Source: Mobula hypostoma (lineage: Eukaryota). Taken from it: a DNA stretch of 64,000 nt. The position numbers and the translations under genes are program-made. Location: positions 51,028,001-51,092,000 of the forward strand of contig NC_086108.1 in the NCBI RefSeq assembly GCF_963921235.1, in the 5' to 3' direction. Of this stretch, positions 50,752 to 52,946 are shown piece after piece. The notes beneath the pieces are model-generated. The model saw only the letters and a program-made list of their open reading frames with translations, did not search any database and was not told the origin of the DNA. Positions within the stretch are counted from its first letter, which is position 1; the number at the start of each line of letters is the position of its first letter.

Positions 50752-51551
50752 CATATGTCCAAAGATAAGTTAGCGCGTTTTTACTCGCATATTAATCCTT
50801 TCTGTGATAGATGTTCGGGGCAGATAGCCTCTTTAACTCATATGTTTTGGTCTTGCCCTACTTTGGAAACTTTTTGGAGAGATATTTTCAATATTATTTC
50901 TAAGGTATTAAATATAGATATCTCTCCTCACCCTATTACTGCTATCTTTGGACTACCTAAAATTTCTAGTAATCTTTCCCCTTCAGCCCGTAGAATGATT
51001 GCATTTCTTACTTTAATGGCGAAAAGATGTATTTTACAACATTGGAAAGAGCTTAATGCTCCAACTACCTTTTTTTGGTTTTCTCAGACGATTTTATGTT
51101 TGAATCTGGAGAAAATTAGAAGTAACCTTTATGATTCTTCATTTAAATTTGAACAGATTTGGGGACCTTTTATTCGATATTTTCATTTAATGTAATATTT
51201 ACCCTTCTTGTTTTTTTTTCACTGTTTTAATGGAGGTCGGGATTGAGGACGTGATTTTAAGTTTAACTCTGTTTGGTTTCAAGTTAGCCCATTGCTTTGC
51301 TTTGCTTTTAGTTAGTTGCACGGTGGGTTTTTTTTGGGGTTTTTTTTTTCTTTTTTTTCCATTGATATATATAAAATCTAGTATACTATTATGTTATCTT
51401 GGTTTCTTATGCTTAAATTACATTGTTTGTAGTATTTTCTTTTTGGTATTGTTATCTTTTGGAATTTTATTATACTTTAACATTGTATTAATGTTTATAT
51501 GGCTTACCTTTTTTGTATACTTACTCAATAAAAAGATTTAAAAAGAAAGAA
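50752..51551 (+). mobile_element. 5'-truncated L1-clade LINE: ORF2 C-terminus, 3' UTR and A-rich tail
   Basis: Open ORF 50755-51195 with the Cys/His motif CDRC...LTHMFWSCP; T-rich UTR; tail aataaaaagatttaaaaagaaagaa. Confidence 0.85.
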
Positions 51552-52946
51552 GTTGTCTGGCTTGGGTCGAGCATTTTGGGTGGCCTTCCACAGGCTTCTC
51601 GCGGTGGGTTGCTGGAGTTTTGTTCCAGTCCTCCGGTCAGGGCTGGTGTGGCTGAGTCAGGTTTGAGGTCAGGGCTGTGTGATGGCCCCTCCAATACCTT
51701 GACTTTGTTGCCCTTAAGCAATTTTGCCACAACTTTGGAGGTATGCTTGGCATCATTGTCCATTTGGAAGACCCATTTGCAACCGAGCTTTAACTTCTTG
51801 GCTGATGTCTTGAGATGTTGCTTCAATATATCCACATAATTTTCCTTCCTCATGATGCCATCTATTTTGTGAAGTGCACCAGTCCCTCCTGCAGCAAAGC
51901 ACCCCCACAACATGATGCTGCTACCCCCATGCTTCACGGTTGGGATGGTGTTCTTCGGCTTGCAAGCCTCACCCTTCTTCCTCCCAACATAACGATGGTC
52001 ATTATGGCCAAACAGTTCAATTTTTGTTTCATCAGACCAGAGGACATTTCCCCAAAAAGTAAGATCTTTGTCCCCATGTCCCCATGTAGTCTGGCCTTTT
52101 TCTTTCTTTCTTCAATCTTTTTATTAAGTTTTCAATTAATAAACATAATAATGATACAAAGAGATCTGGATCACATTAATAACGGTTAATGTATACAGAC
52201 ACAAATTCTGAGTAAGATGTGTAACTTAAGCCTCCCAATCGCTTAATAATTGAACATGAAAAAGAATTTTTAAGCAGAAAAGCCCCTAAACTTAAAAAAA
52301 AACAAAAAAAGAACAAAACAAAACAAAGACTGGTCTGTCAAGTTCCGTCTGGCTTATTTATGCCAGTTTTGGAGCAGTGGCTTCTTCCTTGCTGAGCAGC
52401 CTTTCAGGTTATGTCGATACAGGACTCGTTTTATTGTGGATATAGATACTTGTCTGCCTGTTTCCTCCTGCATCTTCACAAGGTCCTTTGCTGTTGTTCT
52501 GGGATTGATTTGCACTTTTTGTGCCAAAGTACGTTCATCTCTGGGAGACTCTCCTTCCTGAGCGGTATGACGGCTGCGTGGTCCCATGGTGTTTATACTT
52601 GCGTACTGTTGTTTGTACAGATGAACGTGGTAACTTCAGGCGTTTGGAAATTGCTCCCAAGGATGAACCAGACTTGACATCATTTTCTGACCTCAATCCG
52701 ATAGAAAATTTGTGGGCAGAACTGAAAGTGTGTGCGAGCAAGGAGGCCTACGGGCCTGACTCGGTTGCACCGGTTCTGTCCGGAGGGCTGGAGTGGGGTT
52801 CCGGCGGCGTGCTGTGGGGGGCTTGTGGAGGGCCATCCGGGGTGTTTGGCCCAAGTTAAACAATTTAAAGGCAATGCTACCAAATACTAACAAAGTATAT
52901 GTAAACTTCTGACCCACTGGGAAAGTAATGAAAGAAATAAAAGCTG
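51550..52946 (-). mobile_element. Sleeping Beauty-like Tc1, fold-back derivative (5' end replaced by an inverted 3' end)
   Basis: Minus-strand transposase pieces KSGSSLGAISKRLKLPRSSVQTTVRKYKHHGTTQPSYRSGRR, PRDERTL..KVQINPRTTAKDLVKM and [36 protein letters not shown] run to 52676. The plus-strand 3' end (DLNPIENLWAELK...KQFKGNATKY* plus part of the TIR) starts at 52687. Confidence 0.9.
52098..52346 (-). mobile_element. Short L1 3'-end insertion inside the SB-like element
   Basis: Minus-strand aataaaaagattgaagaaagaaagaaaa tail; degenerate TSD gtctggc(c/t)t at ~52089 and ~52347. Confidence 0.7.

Follow-up and report, generated by a model that had tools for sequence, protein, structure and literature searches.

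RNA editing is normally not inherited. LINE-1 3' transductions and chimeric retrocopies begin with a LINE that is truncated on its 5' side and complete at its 3' end, and continue directly into sequence from a foreign locus, within one TSD. Edited retroelements of the APOBEC type have also been noted, and Knisbacher and Levanon reportedly treated those of vertebrate genomes in 2015 (Ann N Y Acad Sci). APOBEC-edited retroelements are fixed in vertebrate genomes, according to the available text of Knisbacher and Levanon (2016, PMC4866542). A-to-G hypermutation in avian retroviruses has been ascribed to dsRNA adenosine deaminase, both in RAV-1 (Felder et al. 1994) and in avian leukosis virus (Hajjar and Linial 1995; both via the available portion of PMC8586724). 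Preferences of ADARs for the 5' neighbour are given as U > A > C > G, and long perfect duplexes as 40-50% converted, in the section available of Bass (2024, PMC11019741).

The window (the whole stretch of DNA that was analysed, 64,000 nucleotides) contains an insertion comparable with each of these systems. It is very probably a LINE-mediated retrotransposition insertion whose hairpin template RNA was hyper-edited by an ADAR-type adenosine deaminase before reverse transcription. The insertion has the layout of an L1 3' transduction, with AATAAA close to where the extra sequence ends. Unlike such transductions, it has no poly-A tail, no source LINE lies beside the transduced sequence in the assembly, and its cargo carries an editing footprint.

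As in the avian retroviruses, ADAR-edited duplex RNA appears to have been reverse-transcribed, leaving A>G changes in integrated DNA. However, the avian cases, as they appear in the text available, concern retroviruses or vectors in infected cells, whereas here the edited hairpin derives from a host DNA transposon, was carried by an L1-clade LINE and sits in the constitutional genome. Also in contrast to those cases, the unedited source locus is still present, which permits base-by-base comparison (PMC8586724). Dense one-strand A>G changes on both arms, confined to the duplex, are shared with the hyper-editing of inverted repeats in transcripts, as are a 5' bias against G and C and the conversion of at least about half of all A's (Porath et al. 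2014, PMC4365171; Porath et al. 2017, PMC5625713; PMC11019741). In the portions available of these three sources the footprints are differences between cDNA and genome, which are not inherited; here genomic DNA differs from a paralogous genomic source. The clusters of one-directional, strand-biased transitions in a retro-copy relative to a related sequence, polarised by a consensus, resemble APOBEC fossils. APOBEC, as described in the accessible part of PMC4866542, deaminates cDNA and so produces plus-strand G>A irrespective of RNA structure, whereas the changes here are A>G within an RNA stem.

Architecture of the insertion

The insertion (50752-52946, 2195 bp) starts with the 3' part of a LINE, referred to as X, and continues with a copy of a Tc1-derived hairpin. 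Its features, with the evidence for each, are as follows.

50738..50751, no strand: left TSD copy, 14 bp, AAACTTGGAATGTA; the same 14-mer recurs at 52947-52960
50752..51552, + strand: X, the 5'-truncated 3' end of a young L1-clade LINE, ~800 nt; family copies and domain matches
51550..52949, + strand: copy of the inner part of a Tc1-derived inverted-repeat element; its ends overlap the LINE end and the TSD by 2-3 nt each
51550..51665, + strand: left stem arm, 18 of 29 A's changed to G; arm comparison, source alignment and MFE fold
51666..52094, - strand: Tc1 transposase remnant, DDE part, in the hairpin loop; DDE_3, E 1e-8; one source difference, G>A at 51752
52095..52330, - strand: X', an older retroposon of ~250 bp inside Tc1; zero differences from source
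52331..52679, - strand: Tc1 transposase remnant, HTH part, in the hairpin loop; HTH_Tnp_Tc3_2, E 1e-14; an isolated A>G at 52543
52680..52949, + strand: Tc1 3' fragment (end of the transposase gene and inner inverted terminal repeat); family alignment
52751..52866, + strand: right stem arm, 25 of 38 A's changed to G, plus T>G at 52809; arm comparison and source alignment
52867..52949, + strand: right-arm tail, 0 of 40 A's changed; paired in the source, partnerless in the window copy
52936..52941, + strand: AATAAA hexamer, 5-8 nt before the copied segment ends
52947..52960, no strand: right TSD copy, 14 bp, matching the left 14-mer; source homology stops at 52949

The left boundary is fixed independently of the TSD, as contigs of the LINE family continue with other letters to the left of 50751. 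TSDs at other copies of X measure 13 and 11 bp. A genome search with both flanks yielded no empty-site paralog; the right flank is unique and the left flank matched only an unrelated repeat, at 50585-50690. At its 3' end, which reads ...GCTGAAA, the insertion has no poly-A tail beyond AAA, and this AAA is common to the TSD start. The LINE family's own tail lies inside the insertion, at 51540-51552. The AATAAA at 52936-52941 is a candidate poly-A signal for the RNA 3' end.

X contains the C-terminal part of ORF2, the 3' UTR and AATAAA at 51527, and the family ends in ...GAAAGAAG with no poly-A. Its complete 3' end is shared with the family copies and its 5' side is truncated at 50752. From 51440 to ~51552, where they stop, many copies show 99-100% identity; across up to 801 nt, identity is 98.4-99.1%. 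A longer copy (L043) has an RVT_1 match and the window ORF a weak zf-RVT match. The best solved relatives of X are human LINE-1 ORF2p (RT part, E 7e-33; C-terminal part, E 1e-4). In an eight-copy alignment, reliable in the 3' half of X only and with calls backed by 4/8 copies excluded, the window differs in that half by a single private T>C and by a 1-nt change within a run of T's.

The sequence-only reading had assigned both arms to a Tc1 3' segment, and this is borne out by DDE_3 and HTH_Tnp_Tc3_2 matches on minus-strand frames and by hundreds of family copies (1718 first-look candidates, 40 of them scored). The window copy begins and ends within the element, with neither terminal inverted repeats nor a TA duplication. 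As it lacks the Tc1 termini and TA duplication that the source element described below has, it was not moved as a DNA transposon. Because the hairpin segment instead lies inside an insertion that begins with a LINE 3' end and is flanked by a TSD, an RNA intermediate, which had been proposed from the letters of the arms, is independently indicated.

An unedited source in the same genome

The unedited source was found on another contig (G000:C62, L031 3913-5312). It belongs to a complete TA-flanked Tc1 derivative with both termini and inverted arms of ~372 bp (3660-4031 and 5110-5483; 93.4% over 378 columns). Alignment of window positions 51550-52949 with it is ungapped and gives 47 differences in 1400 nt, namely 44 A>G, 1 T>C, 1 T>G and 1 G>A. 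Only 2 differences fall in the 1168 nt outside the stem, in keeping with a recent copy.

The relationship of the two loci is also seen in their internal structure. X' had inserted into Tc1 before the copy was made, and X' in a Tc1 context was seen only in the window and in C62. A lineage-specific deletion junction was likewise found only in these two places among 40 scored of 1419 candidates; generic Tc1 copies are split at the deletion point of the left copy. This deletion leaves 52697-52750 without a partner. In the source, the stem runs on outward for ~98 bp past the 116-bp stem of the window copy. The LINE part, the source locus and the missing outer left arm are additions to what the sequence-only reading contained.

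A-to-G changes are confined to the stem

When 51550-51665 is compared with the reverse complement of 52751-52866, 44 of the 116 ungapped positions are mismatched; 41 of these mismatches are G:T, with the G on the right arm in 25 cases and on the left in 16, exactly as had been counted by hand. The other three are one C/A, one G/G and one T/T. Against the source, 43 of the 67 A's in the stem are changed (64%), compared with one of 324 A's in the rest of the copy (Fisher p 9e-39), and the G+C content of the arms has risen from 41-42% to 58-65%. Just one of 68 stem T's is changed to C, so that A>G outnumbers T>C by 43 to 1 (binomial p 5e-12); the changes are A>G on the + strand in both arms, as the sequence-only reading had it.

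It is clear that the ancestral base was A. Among 28 Tc1 family copies the majority base is A at 25/25 changed right-arm sites. For the left arm, 16/18 sites have a majority T on the sense strand, equivalent to A on the + strand, and the remaining 2/18 are lineage variants common to both L031 arms. Thus the expectation that neither the consensus nor the source locus would carry the G's was confirmed. The polarity could in principle be reversed, since a pairwise A>G is a G>A read the other way; the window copy would then be ancestral and the C62 element a derivative hypermutated in the APOBEC manner. This has a negligible probability: it is refuted by the 28 family copies, it would derive a complete, TA-flanked element with both termini from an inner piece, and APOBEC acting on cDNA does not predict G>A limited to an RNA stem. 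Nor does the window copy itself have an APOBEC-type pattern, with one G>A in 1400 nt and an ancestor that holds A at the changed sites.

In the MFE fold of the source version of this segment, 114 of the 116 expected stem pairs are formed. The unpaired stretch 52697-52750 has zero differences from the source and 52867-52949 has none either, in line with the earlier remark that these parts stay A-rich. As the latter is unpaired only in the window copy and none of its 40 A's is changed, the bounds of the footprint match the stem of the window copy and not that of the source. The edited RNA must therefore already have been without the outer left arm. The change being A>G and bounded by an RNA stem, the deamination took place on RNA, before reverse transcription.

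A process acting on the DNA of inverted repeats, whether RIP-like, by adenine deamination in cruciform or single-stranded DNA, or by ADAR on a DNA:RNA hybrid, would likewise put its changes there, and transcribed DNA does undergo low-level A>G mutation that is asymmetric between strands. Such a process is nevertheless highly improbable here. The longer and better inverted repeat of C62, in the same genome, is itself unmutated (114/116 positions complementary), and the mutated copy is the one that bears the marks of passage through RNA (LINE end, TSD and truncation). In addition, RIP yields C>T and G>A on both strands, not a 43 to 1 excess of A>G over T>C, and the proportion of changed A's far exceeds background asymmetry.

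The G's at the changed sites were read from one assembly. Among 24 public runs listed, none contained more than 0.32 of the sampled words. Contigs from four of them (X1, X2, X3 and X22; 95% likeness) cover the LINE part (X1, X2) and generic Tc1 parts only, with no real coverage of the edited arms; the slight X1 depth at 52756-52836 most simply reflects contigs that extend a few bases into that bin, and neither favours nor opposes the G's. An assembly, polishing or sequencing artefact, with the G's missing from the DNA of the animal, would be compatible with this reliance on the assembly. It too is very improbable, as no error known to us gives 43 one-strand A>G changes in 232 nt against one in the other 1168 nt, shows an ADAR-like bias and stops where the stem ends, and as the segment lies within a coherent insertion of LINE and TSD on a chromosome-scale contig.

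Site preferences of the probable editing enzyme

In the core of the stem, A's preceded by U or A were changed at 24 of 25 positions and those preceded by C or G at 16 of 30 (p 5e-4), which agrees with the neighbour bias that had been predicted. Over the whole stem the changed fractions by 5' neighbour are 7/9 for U, 20/26 for A, 10/20 for C and 6/12 for G. The observation that surviving interior A's follow C or G holds for 14 of the 15 unedited A's once the 14 bp at the stem's open end are set aside. In these last 14 bp, the 5' strand has 3 of its 5 A's changed and the 3' strand none of its 7. The sole A opposite C in the stem was edited. Conversion in the stem is higher than the in vitro 40-50% quoted in the available text of PMC11019741.

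Enzymes of the appropriate type are encoded in this genome, where A_deamin (PF02137) scores above cut-off at 7 or more loci, which may include ADAR1/2, ADAD or ADAT1. We infer that the editing enzyme was an ADAR. The event presumably took place in the germline or in a very early embryo.

A probable route from edited RNA to inherited DNA

Because the hairpin copy stands directly behind a complete LINE 3' end in a TSD-flanked insertion, the evidence points to a LINE-linked hairpin RNA that was hyper-edited and then retrotransposed; the sequence-only reading of editing followed by retrotransposition is thus supported. The RNA would have carried the hairpin copied from inside the C62 Tc1-derived element, its left arm contributing 116 nt to a stem with the right one. 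In this stem, deamination to inosine would have reached about two A's in three, on both arms of the single (+) strand. The LINE reverse transcriptase would then have read inosine as G, and the cDNA would have been integrated by target-primed reverse transcription.

In the literature searched, the scope of which did not extend to subscription papers (for example, Knisbacher and Levanon 2015), no earlier report of a germline LINE-borne example was found. There is an even chance that this is the first natural case, resolved to its source, of an endogenous hairpin RNA whose ADAR hyper-editing was made into heritable DNA via LINE retrotransposition. A single event would have written 43 base changes into chromosomal DNA, all of them within a 232-nt duplex. 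If this is true, the LINE pathway in the vertebrate germline does not exclude inosine-rich dsRNA, and RNA editing has a route by which to rewrite ~20% of the bases of a segment within one generation. LINE 3' transductions and chimeras would also constitute a genome-wide fossil record of dsRNA editing in the germline.

The locus links three usually separate fields: inverted repeats of DNA transposons as sources of dsRNA, the marking of self dsRNA by ADAR, and LINE reverse transcription. Comparison with the source shows in vivo which sites the editing enzyme prefers in a genome of the cartilaginous-fish type, and how the LINE reverse transcriptase treats inosine. It also supplies a search rule for further cases, namely retro-copies that differ from their source solely by one-strand A>G within a stem.

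Joining of the LINE and hairpin parts

How X came to precede the hairpin may be explained in two ways. We lean slightly towards 3' transduction, in which an earlier insertion had placed a full-length X in the left arm of the C62 element, or of another copy of that element, at an allele or locus outside the assembly. A read-through transcript of X would have been edited and then retrotransposed. Among the scored candidates (40 of 194), the junction of X with the left arm was found in the window only, and no other assembly locus was found with X directly upstream of that arm; in L031, X is absent within 3.9 kb upstream of it. The source of the transduction is possibly an unsampled allele.

Chimeric retrocopies made by human L1 have the LINE or a poly-A RNA as their 3' part, not their 5' part. 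This order counts against a template jump, which is a rather unlikely second route. Here an edited 1.4-kb C62 RNA, starting at the equivalent of 51550, would have been primed at the target from its 3' end, and on reaching the RNA 5' end the reverse transcriptase would have switched to the 3' terminus of a LINE RNA, 800 nt of which it then copied. The C62 locus (L031) could then be the direct source, so that no unseen locus is required. The exact family 3' end of X meets the first base of the copy with an overlap of 2-3 nt, resembling end-to-end jumps, and neither X' nor the X tail is edited, which also suits a jump. On the other hand, a jump demands an otherwise unsupported RNA 5' end at precisely this point within a Tc1 arm, and action in trans on a non-LINE RNA by this LINE, all copies of which stop at a single defined base. 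Furthermore, the base after ...GAAG is T in 5/5 independent X copies examined, as it is in the window, and this suits an ordinary X insertion junction.

X' was also considered as an inverted copy of X that would form a second stem. The match between X and X' is limited to their tails of ~30 nt (51523-51551 and 52129-52100) and this idea was therefore abandoned. Family copies of X' are 78-90% identical.

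Hairpin arms in a rearranged Tc1 element

The region 50000-53400 of the window (G000:C50:51028001-51092000; the host is a eukaryotic genome of 3.48 Gb) was inspected, and it contains the following features.

50752-51552: 3' end of a LINE, here called X
51550-52949: the copy, a Tc1-derived segment carrying the A>G changes
51550-51665: left arm of the hairpin
52095-52330, minus strand: older retroposon, X', inside the Tc1 part
52751-52866: right arm of the hairpin

Direct alignment of the left arm with the reverse complement of the right arm gave 44 mismatches in 116 ungapped nt, 41 of which set a G against a T (the G lies in the right arm in 25 and in the left in 16), exactly the counts of the sequence-only reading. 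A repeat finder by itself saw just a 38-nt arm pair (76%) and nothing longer, because the arms are so diverged. DDE_3 and HTH_Tnp_Tc3_2 were matched by the minus-strand frames of 51521-52111 and 52354-52635, identifying a Tc1-type transposase gene in reverse orientation. At 52680 this gene meets a 3' fragment from an element of that kind, in forward orientation. The earlier assignment to Tc1 is borne out by these domain matches and by Tc1 family copies genome-wide.

Source element on contig C62

A genome search with the right end (40 scored of 1718 candidates) returned generic Tc1 copies that were 85-86% identical, together with a single 90% match on contig C62, around which 9.9 kb was taken (L031). 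The match of 51561-52949 to L031 is gap-free at 96.9%, and the ungapped register extends from 51550. There are 47 differences in 1400 nt: 44 are A in L031 and G in the window, and the others are T>C (51557), T>G (52809) and G>A (51752). All but one of the A>G positions (43) lie within 51552-51651 and 52752-52849, the remaining one being at 52543. The L031 element is complete, with TA-flanked Tc1 termini at 3663 and 5481 and inverted arms (3660-4031 and 5110-5483) which agree at 93.4% across 378 columns; X' occurs in it at the identical place with 0 differences. Judged by alignment, the window segment is an inner piece of this element, cut at both ends, which rules out movement as a DNA transposon.

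In the source (L031 3660-5483, G000:C62:61453159-61454982), a rearranged Tc1, an inverted copy of the 3' end stands in place of the 5' end; arms of ~372 bp surround a reversed transposase remnant, and the TA flanks are still present. Private variants common to both arms show that the repeat was formed by an inverted duplication inside a single copy. X' belongs to an older retroposon family of ~250 bp, whose copies (loci L034-L041) are 78-90% identical. It has in common with X just the last ~30 nt, including AATAAA and an A/G-rich tail, and seems to be a SINE-like partner, or else an older relative, using the same 3' end.

Direction of the changes

Among 28 oriented family copies, A is the majority letter at 25 of 25 changed right-arm sites, and sense-strand T (equivalent to + strand A in the reversed copy) at 16 of 18 in the left arm. 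At the other two, 51580 and 51622, the family carries another letter yet both L031 arms carry the same variant, so that A is the state of this hairpin lineage there. Both L031 and the family thus have A where the window has G, and the window is the derived copy, changed from A to G on the + strand in both arms, as had been proposed. The reverse reading, APOBEC-like G>A change in the C62 element, is excluded by the same family copies and L031 arms, which give A as the earlier state.

Confinement to the stem and enzyme signature

Changes from L031 to the window, by part of the copy
116-bp stem (232 nt): A>G at 43 of 67; T>C at 1 of 68; T>G at 1
Remaining 1168 nt of the copy: A>G at 1 of 324; one other change, G>A
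Right-arm tail, 52867-52949: A>G at 0 of 40; other changes none

The A>G changes are, but for one, limited to the duplex, in agreement with the sequence-only reading (stem versus rest of copy, Fisher p 9e-39). MFE folding of the source sequence predicts the expected partner for 114 of the 116 arm positions. The source stem continues outward for ~98 bp more in the same register (~372 bp in all), and the window copy keeps 116 nt of the left arm and 199 nt of the right. Since no A in the right-arm tail was changed, the edited RNA already had the structure of this copy, without the outer left arm. The longer inverted repeat at C62 is untouched and the pattern is other than C>T, which makes a DNA-level mechanism directed at such repeats unlikely.

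Of the A's in the terminal 14 bp, at the open end of the stem, 3 of 5 were edited in the 5' strand and 0 of 7 in the 3' strand; Polson and Bass (1994) are reported to have found that ADAR avoids A's close to a duplex 3' end. Grouped by 5' neighbour, the A's edited in the stem as a whole were 7/9 after U, 20/26 after A, 10/20 after C and 6/12 after G. The expected neighbour bias was recovered outside the terminal 14 bp, where 24 of 25 A's after U or A were edited versus 16 of 30 after C or G (p 5e-4). The sole A opposite C was edited. A review (Bass 2024, PMC11019741) gives a 5' preference of U>A>C>G and promiscuous conversion of 40-50% in perfect duplexes over ~50 bp; conversion in the stem (64%) is somewhat higher than this usual in vitro plateau. 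At least seven loci of the genome match A_deamin (PF02137) above the cut-off.

Two changes inside the stem are not A>G. One, the T>G at 52809, faces the edited A at 51607 exactly and could be a reverse-transcriptase error beside inosines or an ordinary mutation; the second is the T>C at 51557.

A LINE-borne insertion

X lies directly left of the copy. A junction-spanning search (40 scored of 194 candidates) found many copies 99-100% identical from 51440 to ~51552, all stopping there; among those 40 the window alone runs on into the hairpin. X copies end ...GATTTAAAAAGAAAGAAG with no poly-A tail, the base after the end was T in 5 of 5 independent copies examined, and two short copies have target-site duplications (TSDs) of 13 and 11 bp starting immediately past the X end. 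RVT_1 is matched on a longer X copy, whose best solved relative is human LINE-1 ORF2p (E 7e-33; R2, 7e-6), and the window's own X frame resembles the C-terminal part of ORF2p (E 1e-4). In contigs from two public runs, the X family continues leftward past 50751 with different letters, which places a 5' truncation of X at that point. The 14-nt stretch just before 50752, AAACTTGGAATGTA, is present again at 52947-52960, where the right TSD shares three A's with the last bases matching L031. Truncation and recurrence together place the insertion at 50752-52946. It is a TSD-flanked unit composed of a 5'-truncated L1-clade LINE 3' end and 1.4 kb from the C62 element. No A tail was found on the insertion at 50752-52946; an AATAAA at 52936, just before the end of the copy, may have set the 3' end of the RNA.

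The A>G changes were read from the assembly; the best of 24 public runs held 0.32 of the sampled words, and the four examined covered repeat parts alone. A cluster of A>G changes that is restricted to one strand, is bounded by the stem, shows a neighbour bias and sits in a coherent LINE and TSD insertion is not easily produced by an assembly or sequencing artefact.

X (window 50752-51552 and loci L043-L051) is a very young L1-clade family with many copies 98-100% identical, and is probably still active in this genome. Its copies share one end base (...GAAAGAAG then T, without poly-A) and have TSDs of 11-13 bp. On the window's contig, two X 3' ends 8.1 kb apart (L046 and L047, G000:C50:37688015 and 37696148) have identical downstream flanks, which suggests local segmental duplication including the LINE copy.

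Joining of LINE and hairpin

It is slightly more likely than not that the two parts were joined by 3' transduction. In this route a full-length X would have landed in the left arm of either the C62 element or a copy of that element, and a read-through transcript would have been edited and then retrotransposed with 5' truncation; as such a transcript starts in X, it would be without the outer left arm. A single assumption then accounts for the junction, the absent outer arm and the T that follows ...GAAG. A source with X next to the left arm is absent from the assembly (not at L031; junction searches, 40 scored of 194 and 40 scored of 1419 candidates), and would therefore be an unsampled allele or a lost locus. 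An unseen locus is not required if priming used a C62 RNA beginning at the equivalent of 51550 and the reverse transcriptase, on reaching the 5' end of that RNA, jumped to the 3' end of an X RNA. This template jump is less probable; it requires an unexplained RNA start at the equivalent of 51550 and the use in trans of a foreign RNA by a LINE whose 3' end is very precise. The main conclusion, that an edited hairpin RNA was retrotransposed, stands whichever route joined 3' end and hairpin.

The event is recent: beyond the stem, 2 of 1168 positions separate the copy from C62, and X matches other members of its family at 98.4-99.1%. Its presence in the assembled constitutional genome indicates that the insertion arose in the germline or very early embryo.

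Comparison with known systems

PMC8586724 describes ADAR-type A>G hypermutation carried into proviral DNA of avian retroviruses (1994-95). Hyper-editing of inverted-repeat RNA is common across animals (PMC4365171, PMC5625713), and APOBEC footprints in genomic retroelements are well described (PMC4866542). Among the papers covered by a literature search, none described a hyper-edited copy in the germline that was carried by a LINE and traced to its source; Knisbacher and Levanon 2015, outside that set, may treat RNA-edited retroelements. The mechanism is made of known parts; what is new is a natural, source-resolved instance with a DNA-transposon hairpin as LINE cargo.

Elsewhere in the window, a 182-aa open frame on the minus strand (57390-57938), in repeat-rich surroundings, matches Pfam ALKBH8_N (E 1e-18). 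The frame probably belongs to the ORF of another retroelement and not to a host ALKBH8 exon.
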